From positions 62,001 through 126,000 of the forward strand of contig JBEWZL010000011.1 of NCBI GenBank assembly GCA_045837725.1: a stretch of DNA of 64,000 bases, read 5' to 3'. The position numbers and the translations under genes are program-made. Below, piece by piece: positions 16,304 through 64,000 of this stretch (its first letter is position 1; each line of letters opens with the position of its first letter). A model generated the notes under the pieces. It was not told where the DNA came from. It searched no databases and was given only the letters and a program-made list of their open reading frames with translations. This stretch comes from Vermamoeba vermiformis (Eukaryota).

Positions 16304-16983
16304 CCGTTAAAAATCGTCGGATGTAGAAATTTCCAGCTCCGAACGACTCTTCTCGGACGTCGTGCTTTTAGAAACTTCTATTTTCCAGGATGCAAAGCAG
16401 AGGCGCCGCCTAGCAGATTTTCGGAGTTGCAATTTACCAGAAGCTTCTAGATGATCTTGAAAATGAATGATTAATCACAATTTTAAGGTGAGTTTAATTA
16501 AATTTAATATTTAGGTTGATTTTCCGTCGTGAAACTAGTGCTGGTAAAGCCATGACATTACATCCGACGGAAAATCAACTGCAGATGTTACTTATTATTA
16601 ACGTGGTTTAATTATATGATAACTCTTACCAATATTTTATGTTATTTTGAGCACGATTATTATTTGAATTTCTTGAAAGCTCTGCTCATCTCAAGCCTAA
16701 CCTTTAACCTTAGTTTCTTCCTGTCCAGTGGATCGTATACAAACCACTGCTAACAAAGCTTTTAATGTGCACACTTTATTATTTACTGATGTGCTCATCA
16801 TTATCGTTGTTGCAACAACCATCACCTCGTTGAAAAAACTTTTTCTTGTGTGATACAAAGCTACTAGTGGCGTATGAGCAGTCAACGCATGCAATAAATA
16901 GATTTAATAACTCCATAAAATATTTCCTTGCTGAGGTGCTGATCCAAATCCACCCGAGCTCGAAATTCTAGCTAAAGCTACTT

Positions 16984-19635: not shown

Positions 19636-20881
19636 ATGACTTCATCACACGTTTCAACACCTATATTACACGTCGGTGTATACCAAGGAGGATGCGCAGA
19701 AGGTGTAGAAGCAAATCTGAAATTGTTAGAGAAAGTTACTGCACAAAAACGAGATCAGAAATCAGATCTAGTAATATTTGCTGAATTATTCCTCTGTGGA
19801 TATTGCATTGGTCCTAAATTCCACGAAGGTACGATTAATAAAAGCATATTAAAAATAAAAATATCAAGTAAACGTTGGAAAACGGTTAATAAGAACTTAT
19901 GATATATACGCGACGATCAATAATTAATATTTACTTGTATTAATTAATAGTATGATATTACTGCTCGCTAATTACTTTACAGTGGCTGAAGAAGCAGATG
20001 GACCATCGTTTCAATTTATTTCAACGGTAGCGAAGAAAAACAACATAGGAATTGCATACGGATATGCTGAAAGGTATGTATATATATGATATTTTATCCT
20101 ATTAAATATGTTAGTAAGTCAATCCGCTTACAGATCCAAAGAAAATTCGACAGTCGTTTACAACTCAGTTCAAGTCCTCGACAAAGAAGGCAAATCAATA
20201 CTAAATTATAGAAAAACACATGTATGGGGTCCATATGAAAACGAGTTCTTTACAAAAGGCGACGTTTTGCCTCCCGTTGTTGACTTTTGTGGTAAGCATT
20301 CAGATCCGCTTGTTTATGATAACTGTACCATGAAACACGTACTAATAATGGATATTGATATTAGGAATGAAAATTAGCGCTTTAATATGCTACGATATTG
20401 AGTTTGTTGAACCAGCCCGGATCTTGGCAATTAATGGCGCTCAATTATTGATCGTACCGACAGGTAATTATTATCTACTTTATATCGTACATCTATAATA
20501 CTTATATAAATCCACATAGCCATCGTTACCACTGAAATGTCGAGATTGACTATTCCTTGCCGCGCTTATGAAAATAACGTATTTATCTGCTATGCAAATC
20601 GAGTTGGATTAGAGCCATGTCCTCATTGGAAGAGGAACTTGAATTTTGTAGGCAATAGCGTTATATGTAAGTCCTTGTAGTGCTTAAATCGGTGAGTTTT
20701 CTGATTCTGGTTGCCAGATGCGCCGAATGGAATTGAGATGGCAAGAGGAAATAACACTAAAGAAGAGCTTCTTATTGCCGAGCTAGATTTTTCGAAGAAT
20801 TCTTACAGAGAAAAGAACGCGCAGAATCCTTACTTCACTGATAGGCGGCCAGAATTGTACGAGCAGATCCTGAAAAAGTAA
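19636..20881 (+). CDS. Carbon-nitrogen hydrolase (nitrilase superfamily amidase)
   Basis: Catalytic triad motifs IFAELF (Glu), YRKTH (Lys) and LICYDIEF (Cys); also RAYEN and C-terminal DRRPELY. Multi-exon. Confidence 0.93.
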
Positions 20882-21330
20882 ACCAACCCCGATATATCGG
20901 AATCTACTACATTAGACAGACAAGCGCACCCTCTTATTGCTTTATTGGTGGAGCGAGTGAAATTTGATAATGAGGGTTAGGGTTAGGGTTGCGGTTGCAC
21001 CATATCGATACATGCTCCGTGTCCTCGTCACATGATTTGAATACGGGTTACCAGGATGCACGGAGTGATGGTCGGAAGTTTATTGACTACTTTGAGCGGG
21101 CCTATACGAGGCTTGTGTAAACTTGACAAGACCAGACTTGGCTTGATACAGATCTGAAGAGCAGCAAAATCGATTTTCCTTAACTGGACTATGCAATATT
21201 TCTAAACTATCAAGGACAAACGGCGAAGCGCGGCGAAAATCACATTTGAGCGGATGTCCGATCACTCACGATTTAATAACCCAACAATTTTATTTTATCT
21301 AACAAAACAAAACAATACATTACACGAAAA

Positions 21331-22024
21331 ATGACCACCGCCATCTTGTGCTGCGACTTCCAACCTGATATTCTTGGCATATTGGAGCCTGACGCCAAGA
21401 CAAACGTCATAGCCAAAGCGCAGCAAGCTCTCGAAGCTGCACGAAGCAAAAATTTATTTACAATTTTTATTCGTGTGGCCTTTAGACCTGGATACCCAGA
21501 AGTTAGTCCCAACAACCTGGTAAATATTCTACATTTTTAAAAAAATATCTAACGAAATTTCTGGCTCGATCTAACATTTATCAGGCCTTCGCTGGTGTTA
21601 AAGGTTTCAATCGTGTCATCGATGGTACTCCTGGTGCTGCAATTATTGATGAGCTCAAACCAAGAGACAATGAAGTCGTTCTGACCAAGACCAGATTCGG
21701 TTCTTTCAGCACAACTCCTCTTCGTACAATTTTAACAGCACAAGGCGTCAACCATATTGTGATATTCGGAGTATCGACTAGCGGCGTTGTATTGACTACT
21801 GTTCGCGAAGCAGCTGATATGGACTTCAAAATCACCGTCATAAGTGACGCGTGCGCAGATCGATCCGCTGATGCCCACAAAGTCCTAAACGGTACGCTAG
21901 TTTAATATCTATTTAGCACCATTGAACTTACTAACAAATTTGGTCAGAGATTATTTTCCCCCGTCAAGCTAGTGTTGTTACTACAGATCAGTGGATCGAG
22001 TCTCTTAATGCCACGAGCCACTAA
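21331..22024 (+). CDS. Isochorismatase-like (cysteine hydrolase superfamily) protein
   Basis: Exons 21331-21519, 21585-21891 and 21948-22024 give TAILCCDFQ, KTRFGSF, GVSTSGVVLTTVREAADMDF, DACAD and IFPRQA. Confidence 0.92.
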
Positions 22025-22085
22025 TCCGTTCAATAAATAAATGTGCTTTATCATAATACATTGGCAATTTATTTTTTATCGCGCG

Positions 22086-25000
22086 CTAGTTGAGTACAGT
22101 TTTGATCTCGTTGGGAACAGCATCACCTCGTTTGATCAAAGTGACCGACTCCGATGCTGGCAAACGAGTCGAGTGACCACTGATCTCTTCATCTGGATAC
22201 CCAAAGCGAACAACAATCAGTGGCATCTCGTTGTCTTTGATTTGTGGAACAATGTGACGCAACAGATCCAGCTGTTCGAAGAAGTCAGGTGTTTCTTCAG
22301 TCACTTCTGATCGAATCTTTTCACCGAATGCTGAGAGTCTTCCGTTCAAAGGCCACAACAAGCGTTGCAACAAGAATGCTGTGGTCCATGGCTGAGTAGC
22401 AATGTTGTACTCGGTGCACTTGAGCATTGCACTGATCAACGTCGCACCGAGAGCATTGGTCAGTTCGTTCAGCGAATGATCACGTGGTCCGACGAACAGT
22501 AGCAAACCAGCGGAATGGAAGATTTTCTGACCAGTAGCGATACCAAGAGCTTTGTGTGCTTTCATCGTCATGATGGTGTTCTGATCCATCGTCACCACTT
22601 TTGTTGCAGTCACAAGTTGCATTTGACCAAGTTCAAGCGCGTCCAAAGGAATCGTGTGGTTACGTTGTTCTTCTTGCACGCCGATGTTTCCAATCAGTCC
22701 TTTGCGAACACAATCACTGATGTACGAGTTTGTCTCGACATCTTCAACGTATCGTGAGATCATCTCGATCTGTGCTGGATCGTTGATGACAAGAACACGA
22801 ACTGGATCTTGACTCAGCGCTGGATTTGAGAGGTGTTGAAGTGTTCTCATTGGCACCACACGTCGCTTGGAGTAGTAGTGACGATTTGTCACTCGTTGTG
22901 AAACAAGTGACTCGAATTGCTTCGCCGCCTCCAGTCGTTCTTGTCGCGAGGTGTTTGACGAAGACTGAGCCACATTTGCTCGTGTCAATTGGGGCGAGCT
23001 CGGTTGTGTCAGAGAGTCTTGACTAGTTGGTGTAACTTGTTGTGGCAATACATTCACGGTTGGTAATCGCCTGAGCTCGCCGTGTTGAACTTTGCCTTGA
23101 ACAGGCTGCTTGGGCAGCCCCATTTTCTTAGGAGCTTGACCTAATTGGTCGCGTGGCATGACAGGAGAGTTCGGTTGTTTAGGAGTGCTGGCGGGAGAGT
23201 TGATCATCTTGGGTCGATTGATCGCTCCCAAACTGTGTTGTCGCTTCATTAATGCAGGCTTCGCAGTTCCAGCGCCAGCTGGTGCAATCGATATCACCAT
23301 AAACGGTTCCATTTCAAGATTGGCATTGCTCTCAAGAACTTGTTGTGTCACTTGGAAGCCATAGCCAACAAGAAGTTGTTTCATCACGTGGATTGCTGCA
23401 CCCATTCCAACACGATCGTAGAACGACATGCTGTCAACTGCCAAGAAGAATGGTGGAATGCGTTTCTTGTTCAAGCACAACACGATCTTCAAGTTAGTCT
23501 CGTCGATGAAGATCTTCCATGGCTGAACATTGTGTCCTGATGGTGCCATGAGACTGAAGTACACTGCTCGATGAATGGCCGCCACAGGATTGATTGGTCC
23601 TGATTCAGGAATATCGATGCGAAGCAAGTCATTGGGCACTCGCCTCTCGAGGTTGTCAAGTGTTGGTACGCTTTGAAGGTTGAGTGTTTCACGAACGGAA
23701 GGAAGCTTCATGTAACTTGTGCCTAAGAGCGCCATTAGTAAAGTTATCTTTACGAGGCTGTGCCTTACCTTCTCGCTCGAGTAAAGTGACCAAGTTGTCA
23801 ACAACCACGTCAATAGCTCTGCTGTCGCGGATGATTGTGAGATGATCCCCTGGTGTCATTGTCACATCGATGTTTTCGTGAAGAGTTTTCCAACCCAAGT
23901 CATTCATGCCCATCGGATTGTAATAGTTGTATAGAGCCCACTTCTGTTGGGCTGAAAGCAATGTGATGCGTCCACGCAATGGTTTGAAGCGATAGTTTGT
24001 GAGAAGTCCTGATGATGATGCAAAGTGTGCCAACGCTCGCTCAACAAACGGAACAAGAATCTTCTTGTCGATCTTGTCGCTGAAAGCATCGATCAGTGCC
24101 TGCTTTTGTTGTTGAGGTGTCTTCAAGTGTTTGAAGTGTTCTTCAGTCAAGTCACTTGTCTTGCCAATCAGTGCCATTGCAATCTCGAAAGAGATCATTC
24201 TGAAGATCGTTGGTGCTGAGATATCTGAAAGTCCTCGTGCATTCACGATTGAAGGTGCTGTCGAGTCGATCATCGCAACAGTGCACACGTTGCATCCTTT
24301 TTGAAGCATTTGGTGTGCCATCTCGCAAACAAGAACACCACCAAAGCAATAGCCTGCCAAGTGGTAGATACCACTGCTTTGTACTTTCATCAGAAGCTTC
24401 ACGTAGATGTCTGCGAACTCTTCCATCGTTGAAGGATGGTCATCGTCGGTTTCTTTAACGTCAAGTGGTGTTGAGTCTTGGAAACTGTAAACTGTGACGT
24501 AAGGAGGAAACTTTGATGCAACATCCTTGAACACAACACCGTTTCTGAACGCTCCATGAACCAAGAAGATGTTCGTTGCTGGTGCTTCTGTTGCTTCTTT
24601 CAGTTTCACGCATTCATAGTGTGTCAATGGCTTCTTCTTGAAGCGTTCAAGTGAGCTTTCTGATTGTTGTTTGGCTGCTTGGAAATCGAACAACTTGGCG
24701 AGCTCTCCTGGTGACGCGTTGTCAAAGAACTGTTTCAGTTCGAGTTTGACATTGAGTGCTTCGCTGATCTTGTTGACGAGAGTGAATGCGTGAAGACTTG
24801 AGCCTCCCAAGTCGAAGAAGTTGCTGTTCGATCCGATCTTTGATTGATCAATGCTCAGTACCTCGGCGAAGCACTTGGCGATTGTTTTCTCGACTTGAGT
24901 TGACAATGGCTTCATTGGACCTGTTGATCCCGATGCATGTTGATCGCTGAAGTAGGTGGCTTCGAACGGATTGGGAAGTTGTTTGGTATCGACTTTGCCA

Positions 25001-28000
25001 TGTGAGGTCAGTGGGAACTTGTCGATCGCAACAAGTCTTGTTGGTACCATGTATTGAGGAAGCTTTGTCTTCAGTTCACCAAGCACCGATGTCAGTTGTG
25101 ACACCTTCGATTCGTTGTTGATTGATGAATCGAACTCGACAAAGCCAACCAAGCATTGATCTCGTTGTTCTGATTTGTGAACGACAACACTTGACATCTT
25201 CACACCTGAGCATCCAAGAATCGCTGATTCAATCTCACCACACTCGATGCGGTACCCACGAAGCTTGATCTGGTTGTCTGCACGACCCAAGAAGTGAATC
25301 TCGCCTGATGGAAGATACTTTGCCAAGTCTCCACTTGCATACAACCTCTTTCCTTCAGCATATGGGTGGTCCACGAACTTTGCTTGTGTTTGTTGAGGAT
25401 TGTTTGCGTACCCAAGAGCCAAGCAGTCGCCACCAATGTACAACTGTCCTGTCACTCCAACTGGCACGATGTTACGATCTTCACCAAGAATCAACAACTC
25501 GCTATTGCGGATTGGAGCACCGATTGGAACAACATCGTTTGCTGATCGTGTTTCAGGAAGTGCATTGCAGTCGTAGTAACTGCAAAGAACACACGCTTCA
25601 GTGGGTCCATAGTTGTTGATCACTCGAACTGATGGAAGTGATTTCTTTGTTCTGTCAACGAGTTTGACGTACAATGCTTCACCACCACATCCGACAAGTT
25701 GAACTGAACTGAACTTTGACTTCTCTGAGGCATTGATGTCAAAATAGTCCAAGATCATTGAAAGCATTGATGGAACCATCAAGATTGTTGTCACTTTGAA
25801 CGAGTGTGCTGTATCGATGATGTATTGTGGATCTTTGTTGCCGAACGGTTTCGAGATCACCAATGGACAGCCACGAGAGATACTCATCACAACATCGTGC
25901 AAATGTGCATCGAAACTGAATTCGAACAGTGCCAAACATGCTCCTTGAACATCATTGAAGCTTGATGACATTTCGTTGGCCAAGTTGCTCAATGCAATGT
26001 GAGGAACAACGACTCCTTTGGGTTTGCCTGTTGTTCCTGATGTGAAGATCATGTAGCATGGATCGAGTGCTCCAATCACTGGCAAGTTCACTTCCACTGG
26101 CTTCATCACTTCATCCAACGTGATGACCAACGACTTGACTGTCGTGATGTCCTTCAGCAAGTCGAGTTTGTTTTGTTGAGTGATCACAACACTCGCTCGT
26201 GCATCAGTCAGAATGCCTTTGATGCGTTCGATTGGATCTGAGCTGTTGAGAGGCAAGTAGACACATCCTGCACTCATGATACCAAGCATTGATGTCGTGT
26301 AAACAACTGATCGATCCATGAGCACTGCAACAACTTGATGTTTGCCTGCCACATGACTTTGAATCATCTTTGCAACTCCACGTGCTGCTGTTGAGAGTTG
26401 TTTGAAAGTCAATGAGGTGTCTTTGTCCGCAACTGCAAGACTTTCGCCCAATTCGCTCGATGAGCCAAAGTTCATCACTCGTGCAAACATCGGAATAAAT
26501 GGTCCTGTATTTTCGTTCGTTAGAACTGAAACTGACGCACTAATATGGCAACCCATTACTTACCCTTTCGAGTAGGACCTCGACCACGAGTCGCAAGTGA
26601 GTTGCCACTTGCAGGCGAACAATCTCGTTCACTTTTGTATCAGCACTTGACTTGACTAACAACGAGAGCAAGTTGAGAAGATCACTCTCGATTTGTTCGA
26701 TCAGATCTTGTTTGTAAAGATCGGTGTTGTATTTGATGTTCAGAATCACTCCGTTGTTCAGTGTCACGAACCATGCTGTCAAATCTGTCATGCCTGCTTG
26801 CATGTAGTGAGGATAGATGCGTTCTTTCATCACCAACTCTTTCGATGCCAACTTGGGCAGTGAAGGAATGTGGTAGTAGTTCATTTCGATTTGAAACAAT
26901 GGACTTTGACCTTGTGCAGTGACGATCTTCTTCGTGTCCAAGATGTCTTTGATCAGTGCTGATGCTGGATACTCTTCGTTCTTCTTGCACGAGTCAACTG
27001 ACTTCTTCAGCGATGAAACGAAGTCTTTCAGACTCAACTCGTGATCCACTTCCACACGAACTGGCATTGCATTCGATGTGAAGATGGTTGCATCGAGCCA
27101 GTCTTCTTTTCGGCAATGAAACGCTGTGCCAAGGTTGAACTTGTTTTGTTGACTGTAGCGAGACACCACGATCGACCATGCTGCTGCAAGCAAGTGGAAG
27201 CGAGTGCTGCCGAGTTCACTTGACTTGTTCTTCAGTCCTTCCCAAAGTGATGATTCGAGTTTGACGATGCGTTCAGCACCATTGAATGTTGGTGCACCTC
27301 CTCGAGGCATGCTTGTCAGCATGTCCAAGCGATGATCGAACTCTCCCGAGGCAATCTTTGATGTCCAAAAGTCTTTCATTGCGTTCTGCGTTTGTGCGAG
27401 TTGTGTTTGACATGCATTGAAGTGAAGCATCACATCGACTGCTGATGGACGAAGAGCGTGAGTGAGTTGCCAGAAGAAGTTGTCTTCGCGATGGTAGAAT
27501 TGAAGAATGCGCGGGGGCATTGAAAAGCCGGAGAAGCCATCGCTTGCCAAGTGATGAATGATGCCTTGAACAATTGCGGTCTTCGTGTTTACAATTGGAA
27601 AGACGTGAAATCGAACGAGACCGATTTGTTCGGAAAGAACAATCGGCGTTTTTGTGTTCTTTGTTATCGCAGCCATCACCTCTTCTTCTTTAAGAGGCTC
27701 GTGCATGAAGACTGATTTCTCAGCCATTGATCGCACAACACTGGAGCTTGCAATAACTGCGGTCTCGTTGTCTTTCAGCGTCATTGTGCAACTTGGGTGC
27801 GAGATGTAAAGCATTTGAACAGCATCGATCACTTTAGCGTGTTCAGGCACACCAGTGACGCGCACAATATCGGTGATGTTGTAGATTGACGATGATGGGT
27901 AGCGCTGTTGATGAAGTGCAATCATCTTTTGATTGATGTTCAGTGGTACTTCTCGCGAGTCTATTGTCGTCAAGTCAACGTTAGTAATCGCTCCTGTGAA

Positions 28001-29353
28001 ACAAGTTTCAGACATTCTTACCGAACTCAAATGAAGGAGGTTTGGTTGTGTCCATTTGAATCTCATGGGACTCTGATGTGCTCGAGACAAGAAACAACGA
28101 ACGTTGTTGAGATTTGTCGCTATTGTTGTTGGTGAGAACAAAGTTGATGGTTGAACGAAGTAAAGGAAGATCGATCGGTCTGCCAACCAAGAAGTCGATC
28201 ATTGCATCGAACATGGGTGTTCCCATCGATGGCACCATGCGCACTTGACACACCAACGACTTGCCTGTCACACATCCGTCGAACGGTGACACGAGTGGAA
28301 TCTTCAGGAGTCGTTCTGAAGGGAAGCTTGAGTTGCGGCTGATGAAGCCTTGAAGTCTCATCAACACGGGTGGCAGATCCTCCATCATCAGCCTAGAGAA
28401 TTCGGGCGTGGTTGGGTGGTAAGAATCAAGTATTACAGCCGTTGGTAAATCGTCGGTTGGTTCTATGGGTTCTGTCTTATGTCGTTAGAAGTGCCCGAGA
28501 ACATTCAATTTACGCAAATACTTACTTGCAGTGATGGTTTTGTTGTAGTTTTGTTGAATATACGCTGTTAGTTTTGGAAGATTTGAAGCAGGTCCTTTGA
28601 CAACAAGAGTGTTCGTGTCAAGAATGACTGGAACTGAAAATGACGAGTCTGACATTCGACTCGCTGTTAGAATTTGCGGTCTTGAAGCTCCTGTAACGAT
28701 ATATGACTGGTATTTTGAAGGCCACATCCCTTGTCCTAGGATAACATTTATTAGATTTGTGAAAGCAGATTCGGATCTTTGAATTACGGACCGAATTACG
28801 AAATGTGCGCAGTGAAAATTGTATACATGATATTGCTTACCCTCTAGTAATACTGCAAGCTCTATTAACGTAATCAATGAAGCAACTGTGTAAGTGGAGA
28901 TTTCTTCATCTGTCTCTGCAGATGCAATAATAAACTGAGCCAAATAGCTTGATAATGACAGTCCTGATGCGCCGACCAGTTGTTGTCTGAAGTCTTTGAG
29001 ACTTGGGAGGGGTTGTTGTGATTGACGGGCATCCAAAAAGATACTCACGATCTGCACGAGTTCGCGAGAGAAAATCAACGCCAAAGTCTTATTGCTCGAA
29101 GGAGACCCTACAATAACGTTTGTAAATAAATGATTGAAATATTCCTAGTTTTTTCCGTACCTTCAATTTCGTTAATTACTGTTTGGATCGCGTTCTGTAC
29201 CAATGCATCACCAGAGCACTCTTGAAGATACTCTCGAAGACTTGACACTATATTATTGACTGGAAGTCCGGATGATACCAAGGTACGGCCAGATGACTGA
29301 TGTGAAATGACCGAGCCATCGAGTTGGATCGCGTTTGGTGAAAAGGAAAACAT
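22086..29353 (-). CDS. NRPS copy 1: SAT/AT-like - C - A - T - TE(Cys) - Acg-like nitroreductase, ~2,296 aa; one apparent frameshift near 26610
   Basis: Exons 29353-29161, 29107-28841, 28735-28526, 28471-28022, 27960-26564, 26504-23769, 23722-22086. Motifs HHLASDG (C); YMIFTSGTTGKPKG, NNYGPTE, SGDL, GRADNQIKLRGYRIE (A); FFDLGGSSL (T); GYCFGG and PGDH (TE); APSGHNVQPW and RVTNRHYY (nitroreductase). Confidence 0.92.
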
Positions 29354-30374
29354 CTTCGCTTGTGGCGGTTCGCTCGTTTGAAAGTTGTAGAATAAAATTC
29401 ACGTTGAAGTCCACTATTGCGACTTCAACGGACGAAAATGAAGCTTGTTATTCGGAAACTCCAGTCACGAAACCTTTTGTCACTTCGTGTTTGGTACATG
29501 ATGAGACCAACATTTTGGAACTTGATATCTTCGGGCCCTGACTAGCTTAACGTTATTCTCAACGTTATAATGAAACTTAAACCTTTTATACACTTACTCA
29601 AACGCGATTTAGGGCTAAATAATGTGGATCCTCGAAGATTCGGATTTGAAAGAAAGTGGTTCTTGTTATTCTCCTCATTCTACGAGCATAAACAATCTGC
29701 AAACTTGCAAACAGAGTCAAGAATGCAAAAATACTGCATAAAGTCTCGTCCGTCCCATCGCCAGGTGCCTTCGAAATTTCAAGTCGTCGACTTATTTAGC
29801 TGGGAAGGAAAGTTAATACTCAACTTAGTACTAGGCTAAGGCCAGCTATGCGTGAATATATTAATCCTACGACTTACACGTCGTTCGTCTGATGATGGGG
29901 TAGATGTGTTTTTTGATCCGGATGCCAATTCGCGTGCCTAAATATTGGATTAATTTTGTATAATTACGTCAAACGTGATATATGAAAAAATTGCAGCTCT
30001 AAATAAAAACGAATAAATAAACTAATAATAATTCTAATTTGCAAAATCTATCGCTTCTAACCAGCAAATAGTGCCATAAATATGTATCGTAAATTAATGT
30101 GCGGAATTTGATTGAAAAAAATAAATTACTGAATCCAGATGTTACGAACAGGATCGCACTAGTCCGGTATAATACCTTAATAATTTTGTTGGCAAGCGAG
30201 TGCGCTCCGTACTTCGTCGTTTCAATACACGAAGGATGCTCTTTCACGCTCCAAGCTAAATGGACGTGGTGTGCACATGTTATGTAAGCTGCCGGATCGA
30301 AAAAAATGGTGAATGCAATTCAATTAATTTCTGCTTTACTGTGTTTACGGTTCTAACAATTTTATTGCATCGCG

Positions 30375-33300
30375 TTAGTTGAGTACAGTTTTGATCTCGT
30401 TGGGAACAGCATCACCTCGTTTGATCAAAGTGACCGAGTCTGATGCTGGCAAACGAGTCGAGTGACCACTGATCTCTTCATCTGGATACCCAAAGCGAAC
30501 AACAATCAATGGCATCTCGTTGTCTTTGATTTGTGGAACAATTTGGCGGAACAGATCCAGCTGTTCGAAGAAGTCAGGTGTTTCTTCTGTCACTTCCGAT
30601 CGAATCTTTTCACCGAATGCTGATAGTCTTCCGTTCAATGGCCACAACAAGCGTTGCAACAAGAATGCTGTGGTCCATGGCTGAGTGGCAATGTTGTACT
30701 CGGTGCATTTGAGCATTGCACTGATCAAGGTCGCACCGAGAGCGTTGGTCAGTTCGTTCAGTGAATGATCACGTGGTCCAACGAACACCAACAAGCCTGC
30801 AGAATTATATATTTTCTGACCAGTGGCGATACCAAGAGCTTTGTGCGCTCGCAATGTCATGATGGTGTTCTGATCCATCGTCACCACTTTTGTTGCAGTC
30901 ACAAGTTGCATTTGACCAAGTTCAAGGGCGTCCAACGGAATTGTGTGGTTACGCTGTTCTTCTTGCACGCCAATATTTCCAATCAGTCCTTTGCGAACAC
31001 AATCACTGATGTACGAGTTTGTCTCGACATCTTCAACGTATCGTGAGAGCATCTTGATCTGTGCTGGATCGTTGATGACAAGAACACGAACTGGATCTTG
31101 ACTCAATGCTGGATTTGAAAGGTGTTGGAGTGTTCTCATTGGCACCACACGTCGTTTTGAGTAGTAGTGACGATTCGTCACTCGTTGTGAAACAAGCGAC
31201 TCAAACTGCTTTACACTTTCATGTCGTTCTTGTCGTGAGATGTTTGGCGAGGACTGACTTGAAGGAATCGGTCGCGTAAGCATTGGAGAGCTTGGTTGTT
31301 TCGGGACCTCTTGGCCAGCTGCTGCTACCTGTGGTCCAGATTGGTTTTGCGATAACACACTTGCGCTGGGAGATCTTCTAATCTCGCCGTGTTGAACTTT
31401 GCCTGGGACTGGGCGCTTAGGTAGTCCCATCATCTTCTTCGGAGCTTGAACGAGCTGGTTCGATTGAAGTTGTGATCCTTGAGTCGTTGGGCCATTGCGC
31501 AGCATGACTGGAGAGTTTGGCTGCTTTGGTATGCTTGCAGGAGAGTTGATCATCTTGGGTCGATTGATCGCTCCCAAGCTCTGCTGTCTCTTCATTAATG
31601 CAGGCTTTGCAGTTCCAGCGCCAGCTGGTGCAATCGACATCACCATAAACGGTTCCATTTCAAGATTGGCATTGCTCTCGAGAACTTGTTGTGTCACTTG
31701 GAAGCCGTATCCAACAAGAAGTTGCTTCATGACGTAAATCGCTGCACCCATTCCAACACGATCGTAGAACGACATGCTATCAACTGCTAAGAAGAATGGT
31801 GGAATGCGCTTCTTGTTCAAGCACAACACGATCTTCAAGTTCGTTTCGTCAATGAAGATCTTCCATGGCTGAACATTGTGTCCTGATGGTGCCATGAGAC
31901 TGAAGTACACTGCTCGATGAATGGCTGCCACGGGATTGATTGGTCCTGATTCAGGAATATCGATGCGAAGCAAGTCATTGGGCACTCGCTTCTCGAGGTT
32001 GTCAAGTGTTGGCACGCTTTGAAGGTTTAGCGTCTCACGAACTGATGGGAGTCTCATGTAGCACGCGCCTTCTTGCTCAAGCAATTTAACTAAGTTGTCA
32101 ACAACTGCGTCAATAGCTCTGCTGTCACGGATGATTGTGAGATGATCCCCTGGTGTCATTGCCACGTGAATGTTTTCGTGAAGAGTTTTCCAGCCCAAGT
32201 CATTCATGCCCATCGGATTATAGAAATTGTAGAGCGCCCACTTCTGCTGTGCTGATAGCAATGTGATGCGCCCACGCAAGGGTTTGAAGCGATAGTTTGT
32301 GAGAAGTCCTGATGATGATGCAAAGTGTGCCAACGCTCGCTCAACAAACGGAACAAGAATCTTCTTGTCGATCTTGTCGCTGAATGCATCGATCAGTGCT
32401 TGCTTTTGTTGTTGAGGTGTCTTCAAGTGTTTGAAGTGTTCTTCAGTCAAGTCACTTGTCTTGCCAATCAGTGCCATTGCGATCTCGAACGAGATCATTC
32501 TGAAGATTGTTGGTGCTGAGATATCTGAAAGTCCTCGTGCATTCACGATTGAAGGGGCTGTCGAGTCGATCATCGCAACAGTGCACACGTTGCATCCTTT
32601 CTGAAGCATTTGATGTGCCATCTCACAAACAAGAACACCACCAAAGCAATAGCCTGCCAAGTGGTAGATACCACTGCTTTGCACGTTCATCAGAAGCTTC
32701 ACGTAGATGTCTGCGAATTCTTCCATCGTTGAAGGATGGTCATCGTCAGTCTCTTTAACTTCGAGTGGTGTTGAGTCTTGGAAACTGTAAACTGTGACGT
32801 AAGGAGGAAACTTTGATGCAACATCTTTGAACACAACACCGTTTCTGAATGCTCCATGGACCAAGAAGATGTTCGTTGCTGGTGCTTCTGTTGCTTCTTT
32901 CAGTTTCACGCATTCATAGTGAGTCAACGGCTTCTTCTTGAAGCGTTCAAGTGAGCTTTCTGATTGTTGTTTGGCTGCTTGGACATCGAACAACTTGGCA
33001 AGCTCTCCTGGTGATGCGTTGTCAAAGAACTGTTTCAATTCGAGTTTGACATTGAGTGCTTCGCTGATCTTGTTGACGAGAGTGAATGCATGAAGACTTG
33101 AGCCTCCCAAGTCAAAGAAGTTGCTATTTGATCCGATCTTTGATTGATCGATGCTCAGCACCTCTGCGAAGCACCTGGCGATTGTCTTTTCGACCTCGCT
33201 TGACAATGGTTTGATTGCACCTGTTGATCCCGATGCATGTTGATCGCTGAAGTAAGTGGCTTCAAATGGATTGGGAAGTTGTTTGGTGTCGACTTTGCCA

Positions 33301-36300
33301 TGCGATGTCAGTGGGAACTTGTCAATCGCAACAAGTCTTGTTGGTACCATGTATTGAGGAAGTTTTGTCTTCAGTTCGCCAAGCACCATTGTCAGTTGTG
33401 ACACCTTCGATTCGTTGTTGATTGATGAATCGAACTCGACAAAGCCAACCAAGCATTGATCTCGTTGTTCTGACTTGTGAACGACAACACTTGACATCTT
33501 CACACCTGAGCATCCAAGAATTGCTGACTCGATCTCACCACACTCGATGCGGTACCCACGAAGCTTGATCTGATTGTCTGCACGACCCAAGAAGTGAATC
33601 TCGCCTGATGGAAGATACTTTGCCAAGTCTCCACTTGCATACAATCGCTTTCCCTCAGCATAAGGATGGTCCACGAACTTTGCTTGTGTTTGTTGAGGAT
33701 TGTTTGCGTACCCAAGAGCCAAGCAGTCACCACCAATGTACAACTGTCCTGTCACTCCAACTGGCACGATGTTACGATCTTCACCAAGGATTAACAGCTC
33801 GCTGTTGCGGATTGGTGCACCAATGGGAACGACATCATTTGCTGATCGTGTTTCAGGAAGTGTATTGCAGTCGTAGTAACTGCAAAGAACACATGCTTCA
33901 GTGGGCCCATAGTTGTTGATCACTCGTACTGATGGAAGTGATTTCTTTGTTCTGTCAACGAGCTTGACGTACAATGCTTCACCACCACATCCGACAAGTT
34001 GAACTGAACTGAACTTTGACTTTTCTGATGCGTTGATGTCAAAATAGTCCAAGATCATTGAAAGCATTGATGGAACCATCAAGATTGTTGTCACTTTGAA
34101 CGAGTGTGCTGTGTCGATGATGTATTGTGGATCTTTGTTGCCGAACGGTTTCGAGATCACCAATGGGCAGCCACGAGAGATACTCATCACAACATCATGC
34201 AAATGTGCATCGAAACTGAATTCGAACAGTGCCAAACATGCTCCTTGAACAGCATTAAAGCTCGATGACATTTCGTTGGCCAAGTTGCTCAATGCGATGT
34301 GAGGAACAACGACTCCTTTGGGTTTGCCTGTTGTTCCTGATGTGAAGATCATGTAGCATGGATCGAGTGCTCCAATCACTGGCAAGTTCACTTCCACTGG
34401 TTTCATCACTTCGTCCAACGAGATGACTAACGGCTTGACTGTCGTGATGTCCTTCAGCAAATCGATCTTGTTTTGTTGAGTGATCACAACACTCGCTCGT
34501 GCATCAGTCAGAATGCCTTTGATGCGTTCAATTGGATCTGAGCTGTTGAGAGGCAAGTAGACACATCCTGCACTCATGATGCCAAGCATCGATGTCGTGT
34601 AAACAACTGATCGATCCATGAGCACTGCAACAACTTGATGTTTGCCTGTCACGTGACTTTGAATCATCTTTGCAATTCCACGTGCTGCTGTTGAGAGTTG
34701 TTTGAACGTCAACGAAGTGTCTTTGTCTGCAACTGCGAGATTATTGCTGCGGTCTGGCAATGAGCCAAAGTTCATCACTCGTGCAAACATCGGAATAAAT
34801 GGTCCTACAATTTCGTCAGTACTGAAAAGTGTGGTTTACTAATGTGATCTTACCTCTTCTGGTAGGACCTCGACCACGAGTCACAAGTGACTTGCCACTC
34901 ATACGAATAATCTCGTTCACTTTTGCGTCAGCATTTGACTTGACCAACAGCGAGAGCAAGTTGAGAAGATCACTCTCGATTTGTTCGATCAGATCTTGTT
35001 TGTAAAGATCGGTGTTGTATTTGATGTTCAGAATCACTCCGTTGTTCAGTGTCACAAACCATGCTGTCAAATCTGTCATGCCTGCTTGCATGTAGTGAGG
35101 ATAGATGCGCTCTTTCATCACGAGTTCTTTTGTTGCAAGCTTGGGCAGCGAAGGCATATGGTAGTAGTTCACTTCGATTTGAAACAACGGACTTTGACCT
35201 TGTGCAGTGACGATCTTCTTCGTGTCCAAGATGTCTTTGATCAGTGCTGATGCTGGATACTCTTCGTTCTTCTTGCACGAGTCAACTGACTTCTTCAGCG
35301 ATGAAACGAAGTCTTTCAGACTCAATTCATGATCGACTTCCACACGAACTGGCATTGCATTCGATGTGAAGATGGTTGCATCGAGCCAGTCTTCCTTTCT
35401 GCAATGAAACGCTGTGCCAAGATTGAACTTGTTTTGTTGACTGTAGCGAGACACCACGATTGACCATGCTGCTGCAAGCAAGTGGAAGCGAGTGCTGCCG
35501 AGTTCACTTGACTTGTTCTTCAGTCCTTCCCAAAGCGACGATTCGAGTTTGACGATGCGTTCAGCACCATTGAATGTTGGTGCACCTCCTCGAGGCATGC
35601 TTGTCAGCATGTCCAAGCGATGATCGAACTCTCCCGAGGCAATCTTCGATGTCCAGAAGTCTTTCATTGCATTATTTGTTTGTGCGAGTTGTGTCTGACA
35701 TGCATTGAAGTGAAGCATCACATCGACTGCTGATGGACGAAGAGCGTGAGTGAGTTGCCAGAAGAAGTTGTCTTCGCGGGTGTAGAACTGTATCACGCGG
35801 GTAGGCAGCGCAAATCCGGAGAAACCATCGCTTGCCAAGTGATGAATGGTGACATGTACGGCTGTTGTGTTTGTATTTGCAATAGGGTAGATGTGAACCT
35901 TCAACAATCCGTTTGGCTCCGAAAGAATAAATGGAACTTTAGTACTCGCGGCGATCGCGGCCATTAGCTCTTCTTCTTTGACAGGCTCGTGCACGAAGAT
36001 TGATTTCTCAGCCATTGATCGCACAACACTGGAGCTTGCAATAACTGCGGTCTCGTTGTCTTTCAGTGTCATTGTGCAACTTGGGTGTTGAATTAGCACC
36101 ATTTGAACAGCATCGATCAGCTTGGCCTTGTCGACGACACCAGTGACGCGCACAATATCGGTGATGTTGTAGATTGACGATGATGGGTAGCGCTGTTGGT
36201 GAAGTGCAATCATCTTCTGGTTGATGTTCAGTGGTACTTCTCGCGAGTCTATTGTTGTCAAGTCAATGTTAGTAATCGCTCCTGTGAAACAAGTTCAAAC

Positions 36301-37791
36301 ATTCTTACCGAATTCAAATGATGGAGGTTTCGTTGTGTCCACTTGAATCTCATGTGACTCTGATGTGCTCGAGACAACAAACAACGACCGACTGTTGAGA
36401 CTTGTTGTTGGTGAGAACAAAGTTGATGGTCGAACGAAGTAAAGGAAGATCGATTGGTCTGCCAACCAAGAAGTCGATCATTGCATCGAACATGGGTGTT
36501 CCCATCGATGGCACCATGCGCACTTGACACACCAACGACTTGCCTGTCACACATCCGTCGAATGGTGACACGAGTGGAATCTTCAAGAGTCGTTCTGAAG
36601 GAAAGCTTGAGTTGCGGCTGATGAAGCCTTGAAGTCTCATCAACACGGGTGGCAGCTCTTCCATCATCAGTGTTGAAAAATCCGGTGTTGTTGGGTGCGG
36701 AAAGTCGACGATTAAAGCCGTTGGAAGGTCGTCGGAATGTTTCAACAGTTCTGTTAATTGACGAGTTAGACAATAAGAAATTAATCCGAATTTCTATTTA
36801 TACTTACTTGCAACGATGGTTTTACTGTAGTTTTGTTGAATGTACGCTGTTAGTTTTGGAAGATTTGAAGCAGGTCCTTTGACAACAAGAGTGTTCGTGT
36901 CAAGAATGACTGGAACTGAAGACGACGAGTCTGACATTCGACTCGCTGTCAGAATTTGCGGCCTTGACGCTCCTGTAACGATAAATGATGCTCCTTTTGA
37001 TGGCCAAGAGCCGCGTCCTATTAGATGCACATTAGATTTTTAGCAGATACTCAACGACAGTCCCGATTTAGAATCATTGCTGTGACTCAAAAATTGCAAT
37101 GTAAAACGTAACAAATTAACTTACGTTCCAATAATACTGCTACTTCGACTAATGTAATCAATGCTGCGACGGTGCTTGAAGAAAGTTCTTCGTCTGTCTC
37201 TGCAGATGCAATAATAAACTGAGCCAAATAGCTTGATAACGACAGTCCTGATGCGCCGACCAGTTGTTGTCTGAAGTCTTTGAGACTTGGGAGGGGTTGT
37301 TGTGATTGACGGGCATCCAAAAAGATACTCATGATCTGCACGAGTTCGCGAGAGAAAATCAACGCCAGAGTCTTATTGCTCGAAGGAGACCCTATATTTC
37401 GTTGCGTGAGTACTATTTGTGCAGAAAGTAAATTTGGAAGCTATTTTCGAAACGCAATCTTTTCAGCAACATTTACATGCTTGGCGAAGAAATTAGCCAG
37501 CAATTTAAATTGAATTGAATACGTGATTGTATCTTGACTAATGAAAATATTAAAAGTTACGTGTACTGGATTGCAATTTAAAGTCAGGTTGCTTTTACCT
37601 TCAAGTTCGTTGATAACTGTTTGGATCGCGTTCTGTACCAATGTATCGCCAGAGCACTCTTGAAGATACTCTTGAAGACTTGACACTATGCTACTGACTG
37701 GAAGTCCGGATGATACCAAGGTACGGCCAGATGACTGACGTGAAATGACCGAGCCATCGAGTTGGATCGCGTTTGGTGAAAAGGAAAACAT
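30375..37791 (-). CDS. NRPS copy 2: SAT/AT-like - C - A - T - TE(Cys) - Acg-like nitroreductase, ~2,311 aa; one apparent frameshift near 36392
   Basis: Exons 37791-37599, 37391-37125, 37017-36808, 36750-36309, 36248-34854, 34804-30375. A-T-TE-nitroreductase lie in one uninterrupted 1,471-aa ORF, so the TE-nitroreductase fusion does not depend on a splicing model. Confidence 0.93.
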
Positions 37792-39060
37792 CTTCTCTTG
37801 TGGCGATTCGCTCGTTTGAAAGTTGTCGAATAAATTCACGTTTCGGTCTGCTACTGCGACTTCAACGGACGAAAATGAAGCTGTTTTGCGATGTGGCGTT
37901 TTACCGAGAAACTCTTGTCGAAATGGCGGTCTCGTGCAGGTGACGCGGAAGTCCCGTTCATTTGTAGCATTGCAATCCTCGCTGCATTTTATCCATGGAA
38001 AATCCGAGTTTTCGCTCTAGAATTCCCTTTCACGGCCTTGTGTCACATCTACCGCGGTTCTGGTACATGAAGGAGACTGCCATTTCGGACAAGATTCTCT
38101 CTATGTTTAGGGTCCTGCTTCGTGGCATAACAGTAATTTGATATTGGGTATGCTTAATTCCACGCGCGGGCCCCGTTGTTGGGAGTTCGAATTGATCCGA
38201 TTAGATTCGTTGGATCTGCAGAATTTGGTCGTTGCTGCTGTTGTAACTGATTCTACTACCGTGCCAAATGCTGCAAATGCCGTCGGGATGCAAAAATAAG
38301 CGTACAGTCTCGTCGGTCCCGTTCCTTGTAGCATCGAAATCTCCGAAGGTTCAACATCGTGGTTTGTCCGTTCATCCGCATCAATCCGCATTGCGAACTC
38401 AGTGCCATAAACCTATGTTAATGAAATCGTTAGCTAAATATTGTTCGAATACGCACGAAAATCGTAGATTTCGGGTTTCACCAGCATTTTGTCACATCCG
38501 ACGTGACTAAATGCTTCAACCGCATAAAATTAATAAACTAAAATTAGCCATCTTAAAATAACCAATATTAGTATCCCTTCCAAATTGCTACGAGGACCAC
38601 TTCGCAATTAGTTAGATAGAGATCTTCGATGTCGCAAGCATCAAAAAAAATTGGACTTAATAAAAAGGTAAATAATTTAATATTTCTAATGACCTTTAGA
38701 CGACTTTTTATTTTGTTTTTTCGGGTGCGCAAATCCTTTTTGCCGATCGCAGATCAGAACAAATTACCAATTAATTTTAAAATTTGAGGCTCAATTAATA
38801 TGCATTGTATTCTCACTTACCAAGGCCAGCCAATTCGCACCCAGGCTTTGTCAAAGTTCTTCTCGAACTGCTTATCGGGATCCTTTAACCAAGGCTGTAC
38901 ATAGCAATGTACAAATAGAATTTCGGTATTTCCGTGTAATGGTTGCATTACTTAATTAGTAGTGTTGCTGAGTCGAAGCAAACAGAGAAAATTTTGTGCT
39001 GCACATTTTTAAATTTACGTAACGCCCTCCAAAGACAACCACAAGCTTTGAAGTTAAACC

Positions 39061-42196: not shown

Positions 42197-43054
42197 TTAA
42201 TGCTTTTCGGGAGCATCATCGAAGTCAGTGGAAGTGATGATGTCCTTGTAGGTATCGAAGTCCGCGGATAATTGTGCAATGCTGCGTTGAATATTTTGAA
42301 GCGAATCTTTGCCGAGAGGAATGTGCAAAGGAGGCTTTTCTAATGCAAGAATCTTCTCAATCGCAATGGCCATTTTTGCTGGATCTCCAGGTGCTTGGCT
42401 GGCACTTGCTCCAATATGAGCCAAGATCTGCTTCACCATGTCATAGCCGTCCAGGTCCTCTGGCTTAGGCATCGTTGAGTTCTCTCCGATCTTGCTTCTG
42501 AACATGCCAGGCTCAACAATGATGACACGAATGCCATGCGGACCGACCTCTAGTGCCAGGGCCTCAGAAAAGCCCTCGAGTGCAAACTTGCTAGCGCTGT
42601 AGGCGCCCGTGGAAGGAAACGAAATTCTTCCAACTGTCGAGCTGATTTGAACAATCGTGCCGCTCTTCTGTTTGCGCATCGTGGGAAGCACTGCTTGGGT
42701 CATAAACACTGCGCCATAGAAGTTTGTCTCCATAAGGCGACGGATGTCTTCTTCTTTGAAATTCTCTACAACGTTCACGATTGTAAACCCAGCGTTGTTA
42801 ATCAAGACGTCGATTTTTCCAAATTTTTCGAGAGTTTTGGAAACTGCGCTCTCGATCGATGCGCGATCTGTCACATCCGTCTTCAAAGCAAGAGCTGTTC
42901 GTGGAAATCTCTTCTCAAATTCAGAAATTTTCGAAACATCTCGGGCAGTTGCTACTACGTGGTGGCCAGCGTTCAAGAAATGTTCAACTAGGGCAAATCC
43001 AAGGCCGCTAGAGCATCCAGTAATGAGAAAAACTTGCTTCGTTGAGGTTGACAT
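42197..43054 (-). CDS. Classical short-chain dehydrogenase/reductase, intronless
   Basis: TGCSSGLG, DVT, NNAG, YSASK and EPG motifs in one 285-aa ORF. Confidence 0.95.
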   Translation of the reverse strand: MSTSTKQVFLITGCSSGLGFALVEHFLNAGHHVVATARDVSKISEFEKRFPRTALALKTDVTDRASIESAVSKTLEKFGKIDVLINNAGFTIVNVVENFKEEDIRRLMETNFYGAVFMTQAVLPTMRKQKSGTIVQISSTVGRISFPSTGAYSASKFALEGFSEALALEVGPHGIRVIIVEPGMFRSKIGENSTMPKPEDLDGYDMVKQILAHIGASASQAPGDPAKMAIAIEKILALEKPPLHIPLGKDSLQNIQRSIAQLSADFDTYKDIITSTDFDDAPEKH

Positions 43055-43341
43055 GATGTTGTTTAGGGTAATAGTAAAATGTGCATTGAATTTTTCAGAA
43101 TAAATATTTTACGGGAGCGGGATCACTTGCCTATTTTAGAAAAAAGCGGCGACGATTCACACGCCGGAGAAACGGAATGATTTCCTTAAGATCAATAATT
43201 TGACCATACTTTGGCCATGGAGCCATGCTTTGTGACTGCTAAATTGGGTAGAGGTCCGAAACAGTGATATTCAATTTCGGTGCATTATCTTGCAAAATAA
43301 TTTATTTAGTTCATTTGTTTTCTTATTCTTATTACACATGC

Positions 43342-61561: not shown

Positions 61562-64000
61562 ATGTTCTGCTTTTCACCGAACCAAATCCAACTCGACGGC
61601 TCCGTCATACCAAGCCATTCTACAGGCCGTGTCCGTTTGTCATCTGATCTGCCCGTCAGCAGTATAGTGACAAGTCTTCGAGAGTATCTTCAAGAGAGCT
61701 CTGGCGATACAGTGGTACAGAACGCGATCCAAGCAGTTATTAACGAACTTGAAGGTATACAACGTTTTATATCCGTTTCTAAACCCTATAATAACCATAT
61801 TGTTGCATTTGTTTATGGTATTATGACATCTTTAAATAGGGAAGCAGTTTTCTCGTTTGTTTTGTTTCCAACCGCTGAATTTGTAGTTCTCACAAAAAAG
61901 ATTGCACTTCGGAGATATGTTCGACTTTGTATATTAATGCTGTATTTAAGGTTCAACGTCGGGCATTCGGGCTCTACCGTCGATTTTCTCTCGCGAACTC
62001 GTGCAGATCTTGAGTATCTTTTTGGATGCCCGTCAATCACAACAACCCCTCCCAAGTCTCAAAGACTTCAGACAACAACTGGTCGGCGCATCAGGACTGT
62101 CGTTATCAAGCTATTTGGCTCAGTTTATTATCGCATCTGCAGAGACAGACGAAGAAATCTCCACTTACACAGTTGCTTCATTGATTACGTTGATAGAAAT
62201 CGCAGTGCTGCTAGAGAGTAAGTTATTTTTATGTTGCTTGACACGCTATTTAGTTTGAACCAGAGATCAGATCTTGATCCGAATAATTCACAGTTTACCT
62301 AACTGTAACGTTTAGAGCGAGGATTATGGCCGTCAAAGTACTCTTCATATATAGTCTCGGGAGCATCAAGGCCGCAAATTCTAACAGCGAGTCGAATGTC
62401 AGACTCGTCATTTTCAGTTCCAGTCATTCTTGACACGAACACTCTTGTTGTCAAAGGACCTGCTTCAAATCTTCCAAAACTAACAGCGTACATTCAACAA
62501 AACTACAACAAAACCATCACTGCAAGTGAGTATTTGCGTAAATTTGAATGTTCTCTGGCATTTCTAACGAAACGACAGAACCCATAGAACCAACTGACGA
62601 TTTACCAACGGCTTTAATCATCGACTTTCCTCACCCAACAAGGCCAGAGTTCTCAACATTGATGATGGAAGAGCTGCCACCCGTGTTGACGAGACTGCAA
62701 GGCTTCATCAGCCGCAACTCAAACTTCCCTTCAGAACGACTCCTGAAGATTCCACTCGTGTCACCATTCGACGGATGTATGACAGGCAAGTCGTTGGTGT
62801 GTCAAGTGCGCATGGTACCATCGATGGGAACACCCATGTTCGATGCAATGATCGACTTCTTGGTTGGCAGACCAATCGATCTTCCTTTACTTCGTTCAAC
62901 AATCAACTTTGTTCTCACCAACAATAAATCTCAACATCGGTCGTTGTTTGTTGTCTCGAGCACATCAGAGTCACATGAGATTCAAATGGACACAACCAAA
63001 CCTCCTTCATTTGAGTTCGGTAAGAATATCTCAGACACTTGTTTCACAAGAGCGAAACTAACATTGACTTTGACGTTCAATGAGACAGGTGAAAAAGAAG
63101 TACCACTGAACATCAACCAGAAGATGATTGCACTTCATCAACAGCGCTACCCATCATCGTCAATCTACAACATCACCGATATTGTGCGCGTCACTGGTGT
63201 GCGTTGAAAAGGCCAAGCTGATCGATGCTGTTCAAATGCTCTACATCTCGCACCCAAGTTGCACAATGATACTGAAAGACAACGAGACCGCAGTTATTGC
63301 AAGCTCTAGTGTTGTGCGATCAATGGCCGAAAAATCAGTCTTCATGCACGAGCCTATCAAAGAAGAAGATCTAATGGCCGCGATAACAAAGAACACAAAA
63401 ATGCCATTTATGGTTTCGGAGCCAAATGGATTGGTGAGATTTCATATCTTTCCAATTGTAAACACGAAAACAGCAATTGTTCAAGGCATCGTGCATCACT
63501 TGGCAAGCGATGGTTTCTCCGGCTTTTCAATGCCCCCGCGCGTAATTCAATTTTACCATCGCGAAGATAACTTCTTCTGGCAACTCACTCATGCTCTTCG
63601 TCCATCAGCAGTCGATGTGATGCTTCACTTCAATGCATGTCAAACACAACTCACACAAACAAAGAATGCAATGAAAGAATTTTGGACATCAAAGATTGCC
63701 TCGGGAGAGTTCGATCATCGCTTGGACATGCTGACAAGCATGCCTCGAGGAGGTGCACCAACATTCAATGGTGCTGAACGCATCGTCAAGCTTGAGTCAT
63801 CACTTTGGGAAGGACTGAAGAACAAGTCAAGTGAACTTGGCAGCACTCGCTTCCACTTGCTTGCAGCAGCATGGTCGATCGTGGTGTCTCGCTACAGTCA
63901 ACAAAACAAGTTCAACCTCGGCACAGCGTTTCATTGCAGAAAAGAAGACTGGCTCGATGCAACCATCTTCACATCGAATGCAATGCCAGTTCGTGTGGAG
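61562..64000 (+). CDS. NRPS copy 3, 5' part only (SAT/AT-like and C domain; runs off the window); apparent frameshift near 63201
   Basis: ATG 61562 (MFCFSPNQIQLDGS). Introns fall at the same four positions as in copies 1 and 2 (e.g. 61755-61950, 63020-63088). HHLASDG near 63495. Inverted relative to copies 1 and 2. Confidence 0.9.

Follow-up and report, generated by a model that had tools for sequence, protein, structure and literature searches.

The N-terminal domain analysed here belongs to a large nonribosomal peptide synthetase (NRPS) gene in a 64,000-nt stretch of DNA, hereafter the window (Vermamoeba vermiformis assembly GCA_045837725.1, contig JBEWZL010000011.1, positions 62,001 to 126,000). 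The segment 28022-29353 on the minus strand corresponds exactly to the first four exons of this gene and encodes, after splicing, 373 stop-free residues. The domain is a real one: all four loci show the same splicing, purifying selection acts on it, and it invariably precedes, within one protein, a module of condensation (C), adenylation (A), thiolation (T) and thioesterase (TE) domains followed by a C-terminal tail. A previous sequence-only reading had interpreted it as an acyltransferase (AT) resembling the starter acyltransferase of fungal fatty acid synthase (FAS) beta, with its nucleophile Ser and its His apparently retained and joined directly to the C domain. The analysis partly supports this proposal: the segment is real, and the AT interpretation stands as a lead with marginal support confined to the middle of the domain and with none for the Ser-His dyad.

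Gene structure and conservation of the N-terminal domain

All exons of the first gene copy (copy 1) lie on the minus strand and are read from 29353 to 22086. Exon 1 (29161..29353) starts with an ATG at 29353, encodes residues 1-64 plus one base and opens with the conserved start MF[SC]FSPN.IQLDGS, while exon 2 (28841..29107, residues 65-153) contains the motif FRQ.[LF]VGAS.LSL.SY with the codon of Ser115 at 28958-28956 and is modelled as all-helical with low confidence by AlphaFold on the read-through sequence. Exon 3 (28526..28735, residues 154-224) encodes a predicted beta-alpha-beta..beta-alpha-beta unit with NTLVVKGP, and exon 4 (28022..28471, residues 224-373) holds the codon of His242 at 28418-28416, the motifs K.P..SPFDG and PS.GTP.FD and a Ser/Thr-rich linker at its end. 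The strings quoted by the sequence-only reading were all located in copy 1, namely LVGASGLSLSSYLAQFIIASAETDEE at residues 108-133, NTLVVKGPASNLPKL at residues 195-209 and SFPSERLLKIPLVSPFDG at residues 272-289, and its DSYHPT, which contains His242, is present in copy 1, with DFPHPT in copies 2 and 3. The whole model of copy 1 spans seven exons, and its reading frame stays open over 2308 aa up to one terminal stop, giving a protein in the order of 373-residue N-terminal domain, C-A-T-TE and nitroreductase-type tail. The model is based on GT-AG sites, CTAAC branch-point-like sites and open frames in all four loci. Three RNA-seq runs carrying the same species label placed 6, 2 and 3 reads on 21800-38100, which covers copies 1 and 2, with zero splice joints; thus, the genes were silent in those samples and the splice model is without RNA support.

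Three paralogs of the synthetase gene were detected within the window by tblastn and self-blastn, and a complete ortholog with identical domain order was obtained from the metagenome contig L001. The N-terminal domain of copy 2 (36310..37791, minus strand) belongs to a tandem duplicate that is 91-93% identical in nucleotides to copy 1, introns included, whilst that of copy 3 (61562..63019, plus strand) lies in inverted orientation, its C domain running past the window end at 64000. The spliced frames are open in all four loci and the intron positions are kept in L001. The dN/dS of the N-terminal domain was 0.23 among the paralogs and 0.09-0.11 against L001, as compared with 0.076 for the A-T-TE region of copies 1 and 2, and these values together with the open spliced frames indicate a real, constrained coding domain. 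In the family alignment, GAS.LSL.SY was observed in all six sequences that cover it, with the Gly ahead of L-S-L replaced by Ala in the relative P0003, and both His242 and [IL]K.P..SPFDG were found in all eight sequences.

The A-T-TE-tail part of copy 2 forms a single open frame of 1486 aa, with the tail at 30375-31900 (minus strand). A one-base insertion near 36390, in the linker between the N-terminal and C domains, causes a frameshift, so that either copy 2 is a pseudogene or the assembly is wrong at this point. A UDP-glucose:glycoprotein glucosyltransferase gene is located just upstream of the synthetase in L001 (347-721) and also before copy 3 (55674-59811, plus strand), suggesting that copy 3 is probably the ancestral locus and that copies 1 and 2 were duplicated later.

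The first three introns of copy 1 are of the GT-AG type and measure 53, 105 and 54 nt. Intron 2 (28736-28840, minus strand; 105 nt) is in frame, a multiple of three and without a stop, and intron 3 (28472-28525, minus strand; 54 nt) is likewise in frame and a multiple of three, with one TAA. In copies 2 and 3, the counterpart of intron 2 measures 95 nt and that of intron 3 measures 57 or 53 nt, and intron 1 of L001 (1973-2114) is apparently GC-AG spliced with the donor GCAAGT. At the junction of the TE and the tail, copy 1 has a 46-nt GT-AG intron (23723-23768, minus strand) that is precisely missing in copy 2 (32060-32068), which is a gain or loss among tandem paralogs of 91-93% identity.

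Relatives of the domain are few. An exhaustive phmmer search of the exon 2-3 open reading frame (ORF) against 1.84 billion representative proteins gave five matches at E<=1e-3, all of them exon-sized fragments with 48-68% identity, and a profile search with exon 4 gave five fragments. The search with the tail region returned one protein among 7994 candidates, P0001, which is 47% identical and shares the A-T-TE-tail order of copy 1. About ten relatives of the domain were obtained in total, and their labels read hypothetical or unnamed throughout, "hypothetical protein" being the label of every named one. When exon 4 was searched in longer proteins (262-2000 aa), none of the 255 candidates reached E<=1e-3, and full-length forms of about 2300 aa could not appear in this size range. 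In genome contigs, searches with very specific patterns confirmed no bacterial relative of either the C domain or A-T-TE, so this absence is weak evidence. The DNA of the window is read as fungal-type, given that its GT-AG introns are short and carry CTAAC-like branch sites and that it encodes a Zn2Cys6 factor at 15635-16306, and the N-terminal domain is restricted to a small fungal lineage.

Profile comparison with acyltransferases

The spliced family alignment (11 rows, Neff 1.56) was used as the query in hhalign against three AT profiles. The FabD/polyketide synthase (PKS) AT profile consisted of 31 sequences, E. coli fabD and 30 proteobacterial loci; the bacterial FAS-I AT profile consisted of 28 sequences from Mycobacteriaceae genomes, and the combined AT profile joined the two. 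One member of the FAS-I profile finds the FAS beta chains of Candida, Chaetomium and Thermomyces in the Protein Data Bank (PDB) with E values of 5e-11 to 1e-8, and the profile can therefore reasonably represent the AT of fungal FAS beta. The whole domain scored 24.0 (P 0.033, 285 columns) against the combined profile, 21.9 (P 0.041, 167 columns) against the FabD/PKS profile and 20.6 (P 0.099, 286 columns) against the FAS-I profile. These were the three top scores of 21 comparisons, with the 18 controls (reversed templates, reversed query, plsX, fabH, fabG, ketosynthase (KS), two other synthase segments and the gene's own C, A, T, TE and tail) ranging from 11.7 to 19.0, and the AT alignments are colinear over 167-286 columns. 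The whole domain shows a weak preference for the AT profiles in these alignments.

This preference is carried wholly by exon 3 (residues 156-224). Exon 3 alone scored 24.1 (P 0.0041), 21.9 (P 0.0056) and 20.8 (P 0.017) against the three AT profiles, while the best of its 11 controls was fabG at 17.8 (P 0.029) and the reversed query reached 17.6. None of 200 shuffles of exon 3 in five-column blocks attained 24.1 (mean 12.8, sd 2.4, max 20.1). With each of the three AT profiles, the part matched by exon 3 is the small, ferredoxin-like subdomain of the AT (FabD residues 129-191), and the motif VVKGP pairs with VV[IL]SG in all three alignments. The middle 65 residues of the domain may therefore resemble the AT small subdomain, at marginal significance.

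Several results weigh against an AT identity of the domain as a whole. The two known AT classes recognise each other without difficulty (FabD-type versus FAS-I AT: 99.2% probability, E 2.6e-19), so the N-terminal domain, if an AT, would be far more diverged from them than they are from each other; its own hhalign probabilities were 0.6-1.6% for the whole domain and at best 8% for exon 3. Of 250 shuffles of the query in twenty-column blocks, 12 reached the whole-domain score of 24.0, P was as low as 0.019 for a reversed control of a separate comparison, and A3 set against a single FabD gave P 0.37. Exons 1-2 alone, which include Ser115, gave P 0.56 and 0.84 against the AT profiles, with fabG as the best control (P 0.056), and exon 4 alone, which includes His242, gave P 0.14, 0.64 and 0.64, with the gene's own A domain as the best control (P 0.076). 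Ser115 pairs with the AT nucleophile Ser in only one of the three whole-domain alignments, that of the combined profile, and out of 130 shuffled queries, 20 placed a Ser in the Ser column, 32 a His within one column of the His position and 4 did both. Outside hhalign, the Pfam and own-HMM scans took exon pieces or the read-through sequence as queries. No AT, SAT or FAS_N model was matched in Pfam, whether by five pieces (E<=1) or by 17 family members (E<=10), and NCBIfam returned nothing for the N-terminal domain. A search of the PDB sequences by phmmer and with the family profile found no AT, the best matches being FecA (E 0.3) and a formyltransferase (E 0.46). In the ESM Atlas, the best match of exon 4 was at 0.80 (OTU-like viral clusters) and the exon 2-3 ORF had no usable match, and hmmsearch --max with our own AT HMMs stayed at the level of decoys (-2.7 to +1.2 bits).

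The position of the proposed dyad was also examined in the alignments. His242 falls one column from the AT catalytic His in two of the three, and in the combined profile Pro is aligned on Pro. It lies 127 residues after Ser115, where an AT catalytic His is expected about 100-130 residues after the nucleophile, and shuffles place a His there in 32 of 130 cases. The nucleophile elbow of an AT (GHSxG) or of a SAT (GxCxG/GxSxG), as defined from passages of PMC10401856 and from our own AT alignments, is replaced by G-L-S-L-S, whose first Gly is Ala in one of six relatives. The flanks of exon 3, which hold the proposed catalytic dyad, are thus not recognisably AT at the level of these alignments, and the proposed retention of the nucleophile Ser and of the His is not supported. 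No match was obtained with hhalign in global mode.

Library and structure searches

The Pfam SAT model matches the bacterial FAS-I ATs in 35 of 46 genomes, yet it matches no piece of the N-terminal domain, and no exon piece or read-through sequence had a significant match to PF00698, PF16073 or PF17828. All that Pfam returned for the domain lay below threshold: five of the 17 members matched Secretin_N in exon 3 (E 5.7e-4 at best), and exon 1 matched RRM_Rrp7.

AlphaFold modelling of the read-through of exons 2-4 (361 aa, 17 rows) gave a mean predicted local distance difference test (pLDDT) score of 39.0 and a predicted template modelling (pTM) score of 0.26, and the intron-free exons 3-4 of the relative P0005 (205 aa, 12 rows) gave a mean pLDDT of 40.0. 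A pLDDT of 50-70 was reached in the first model in the exon 3 segment only, which was folded as beta-alpha-beta..beta-alpha-beta. This first, read-through model was the query for Foldseek and VIA-align, and all matches lie below the noise limits stated by the tools themselves. Many ferredoxin-like folds were listed by Foldseek, including NikR and ACT domains (E 0.004-0.05), with the FabD structures 5ypv and 3k89 at ranks 41 and 43 and the KS-AT of CurL at rank 50; part of two structural alignments to MCAT covers residues of the read-through that are coded by introns. The sequence-only reading had named the lack of any profile or structural match to AT folds as what would overturn it. Curated profiles gave no such match and the models have pLDDT values of 39 and 40, whereas our own HMM-HMM comparison gave the weak exon 3 signal; the AT or SAT reading is thus partly supported.

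The downstream module and neighbouring genes

The remaining three exons of copy 1 encode a complete NRPS module and its tail. Exon 5 (26560..27993, minus strand) was obtained as a splice solution and encodes the C domain with an intact HHLASDG motif; exon 6 (23769..26504, minus strand) encodes the A, T and TE domains, and exon 7 (22086..23722, minus strand) the tail, which is of the nitroreductase superfamily and Acg/Rv3131/Rv1355c-like (presumed FDO group). Pfam recognised, above its cut-offs, Condensation (2.1e-31), AMP-binding (5.1e-70), PP-binding (2.9e-14) and Thioesterase (7.4e-19), that is, all the domains of an NRPS C-A-T-TE module, in the same order as in L001. The C domain is closest in the PDB to a peptidyl carrier protein (PCP)-C didomain and to elongation-type C domains, with the TycC PCP-C structure 2jgp at 1.2e-10. 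The A-T-TE region shares 29% identity with E. coli EntF across 841 aligned positions and matches NCBIfam EntF at 1.2e-98. In the alignment to EntF, the A domain keeps the Asp and the Lys that we take to bind the alpha-amino acid, and its presumed specificity positions read D-A-H-L-G-G-N-V-L-K (24900-26504, minus strand), a code without a substrate match.

The TE nucleophile is a Cys (H-L-A-G-Y-C-F-G-G) that aligns to the Ser of G-Y-S-L-G-G in EntF, and this Cys was also observed in L001 and P0001. According to passages of PMC11298585, Cys-TEs are uncommon, and those of ObiF and SulM form beta-lactone and beta-lactam rings. The tail of about 545 aa matches NCBIfam NF047509 (Acg) at E 1.2e-21 in two stretches (77.6 bits against a cut-off of 199 bits) and NF005901 (Rv1355c family) at 1.6e-15, also below the cut-off, with weak nitroreductase matches in Pfam and no PDB sequence match at E<=0.01. 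On these profile matches, the tail appears to belong to the Acg/Rv3131/Rv1355c (FDO) branch of the nitroreductase superfamily and would be an oxidase fused after the TE in a eukaryotic NRPS. Characterised FDO members desaturate N-acyl amino acids, as described in parts of PMC10404671 and of 10.1101/2020.06.11.147165.

No acyl carrier protein (ACP), phosphopantetheinyl transferase, acyl-CoA ligase, FAS or PKS domain was found among the 98 ORFs of at least 75 aa in the window, though small exons may have escaped. We also rejected the idea of an adjacent EntB-like aryl carrier, because no carrier domain is present at the end of the isochorismatase-like gene at 21280-21902. This isochorismatase-family hydrolase (plus strand), which is convergent with copy 1, is a possible cluster partner, as are a short-chain dehydrogenase (42200-43108, minus strand), an acetoacetate-decarboxylase-like gene (44379-45868, minus strand) and a carbon-nitrogen hydrolase fragment (20090-20374, plus strand). 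Elsewhere in the window, an island of 51% GC at 9155-14430 (plus strand) contains two long open frames of 1079 and 685 aa with no convincing Pfam family, and 8.2 tandem copies of a 234-nt (78-aa) unit at 9723-11640 lie inside these two frames.

Interpretation and alternative explanations

Our tentative preference, held at somewhat less than even confidence, is that the N-terminal domain is a strongly diverged and perhaps inactive AT-like domain that handles the donor ahead of the C domain. It would be a very distant relative of the FabD/FAS-AT/SAT fold in which the small subdomain of exon 3 is still recognisable, while the large subdomain (exons 1-2 and 4) would have drifted past detection, without a canonical GHSxG or GxCxG elbow. 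Such a domain might select, hold or dock an acyl donor, either an acyl-CoA or a carrier protein acting in trans, for the C domain, which would N-acylate the amino acid loaded on the sole T domain; the Cys-TE would then release the product and the flavin oxidase tail would desaturate it. The fold, catalysis by Ser115 and His242, the donor and the product are all what we infer. A head that handles acyl donors would fit the intact HHxxxDG of the C domain, the lack of a donor carrier upstream and the FDO-group tail. By analogy with some SAT domains, it may well be a catalytically inert structural remnant; passages of PMC10401856 describe degenerate SAT domains (GxGxG motif) that are kept in synthases that are still active. 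A more specific version, in which a descendant of a FAS/SAT-type starter acyltransferase has been placed carrier-less ahead of the C domain and one polypeptide makes, releases and desaturates an N-acyl amino acid, appears rather unlikely.

Nearly as likely as an AT-like domain is an orphan domain of non-AT origin, with a generic ferredoxin-like module set between a helical N-part and a C-part, which would serve as a docking or scaffolding platform, for example in oligomerisation among the paralogous synthetases or in recruiting a trans-acting donor carrier, with neither acyl-transfer chemistry nor AT descent. The lack of a family match in the curated libraries, the five matches in 1.84 billion representatives, all exon fragments of close relatives, and the silence of exons 1-2 and exon 4 in the AT comparison all agree with such a scaffold. 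The fold class of exon 3 is also very common, the top rows of VIA-align and Foldseek being unrelated ferredoxin-like proteins, and the C domain resembles the elongation-type C domains of PCP-C didomains, which take a carrier-bound donor. However, a generic module does not readily account for exon 3 scoring all three AT profiles above 11 controls and 200 shuffles, for the position of the small-subdomain-like unit at an AT-like relative place (~155 of 340 residues) or for the colinearity of the whole-domain AT alignments. The same ferredoxin-like unit could instead be an ACT- or NikR-like ligand-sensing head that gates the synthetase on binding a small molecule, for instance an amino acid or a metal. 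We consider this improbable, as the matches concerned come from a model of mean pLDDT 39 and all fall below the noise limits that the tools state, Pfam gave neither an ACT nor a NikR_C match even at E<=10, and ACT domains of about 70 aa would account for one fifth of the domain.

Two other explanations receive very little credence from us. Exon 2, which has 88 aa and is modelled at low confidence as four helices with Ser115 just ahead of a helix, could be a cryptic, degenerate carrier-like four-helix bundle, with Ser115 at a helix N-cap in place of the phosphopantetheine Ser, and would thereby supply the missing donor carrier. Yet exon 2 scored 7.8 (P 0.75) against the gene's own T domain, worse than reversed controls (P 0.019-0.05), the N-terminal pieces had no PP-binding (PF00550) match in Pfam, and the residue ahead of the conserved Leu in VGAS[GA]L is Gly or Ala rather than Ser. 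The same comparisons bear out the earlier statement that no carrier domain lies between the N-terminal and C domains. Equally remote is the view that the segment represents decaying or mis-predicted 5' exons of silent duplicated genes, with which the scarce, joint-free RNA-seq reads and the frameshift of copy 2 would agree. Against it stand the four open spliced loci, the intron positions kept in L001, the dN/dS of 0.09-0.23 and the full copy 1 model that is open for 2308 aa.

Comparison with known systems and significance

Compared with FabD (malonyl-CoA:ACP transacylase) and PKS ATs (PF00698), the N-terminal domain shares a size of about 300-340 aa and apparently a ferredoxin-like unit inserted about 150 residues in. 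It differs in having no significant profile match, no GHSxG and no detectable large subdomain, in lacking a counterpart of the N-terminal GQG oxyanion motif of the AT alignments, and in being fused to an NRPS C domain with no adjacent carrier domain. With the ATs of fungal FAS beta and bacterial FAS-I and the SAT of non-reducing PKSs (PF16073, PF17828), it shares the extreme N-terminus of a megasynthase, and with the FAS-I AT also colinearity over 286 columns, with His242 beside the His of F-H-H-P, though the score is just 20.6 (P 0.099) and the query has a gap at the GHSQG column.

Beyond the N-terminal domain, the protein follows the C-A-T-TE order of EntF-type termination modules. EntF has no N-terminal extension and receives its donor from EntB, whereas the present protein possesses an N-terminal extension, a Cys instead of Ser as the TE nucleophile and a flavin oxidase tail after the TE. 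The tail is like the FDO subgroup (Acg, Rv3131, Rv1355c, TyzC, OxzB) in matching NF047509 and NF005901, both below their cut-offs, and unlike it in being eukaryotic and in being fused behind an NRPS TE rather than to a ThiF domain. In FDO-A members, the N-acyl amino acid substrates are made by a separate acyltransferase, according to passages of PMC10404671.

If one polypeptide indeed makes, releases and desaturates an N-acyl amino acid, it would be the fungal equivalent, in a single enzyme, of the bacterial OxzA/TyzA plus FDO pathways, and its loading would be a new mode of NRPS initiation. The known routes by which NRPSs are initiated with acyl donors are starter C domains, FAAL-ACP loading modules and GNAT loaders, and an AT-like head fused directly to a C domain without a carrier was not among the known initiation routes in the literature listings obtained by full-text searching. 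Should the domain derive from an AT, it would illustrate the extent to which the FabD fold can diverge and yet be retained, and would offer a new loading logic for the engineering of lipo-amino-acid synthetases. If it is not AT-derived, it would represent a wholly unannotated domain family on an unusual architecture of a Cys-TE and an FDO oxidase.

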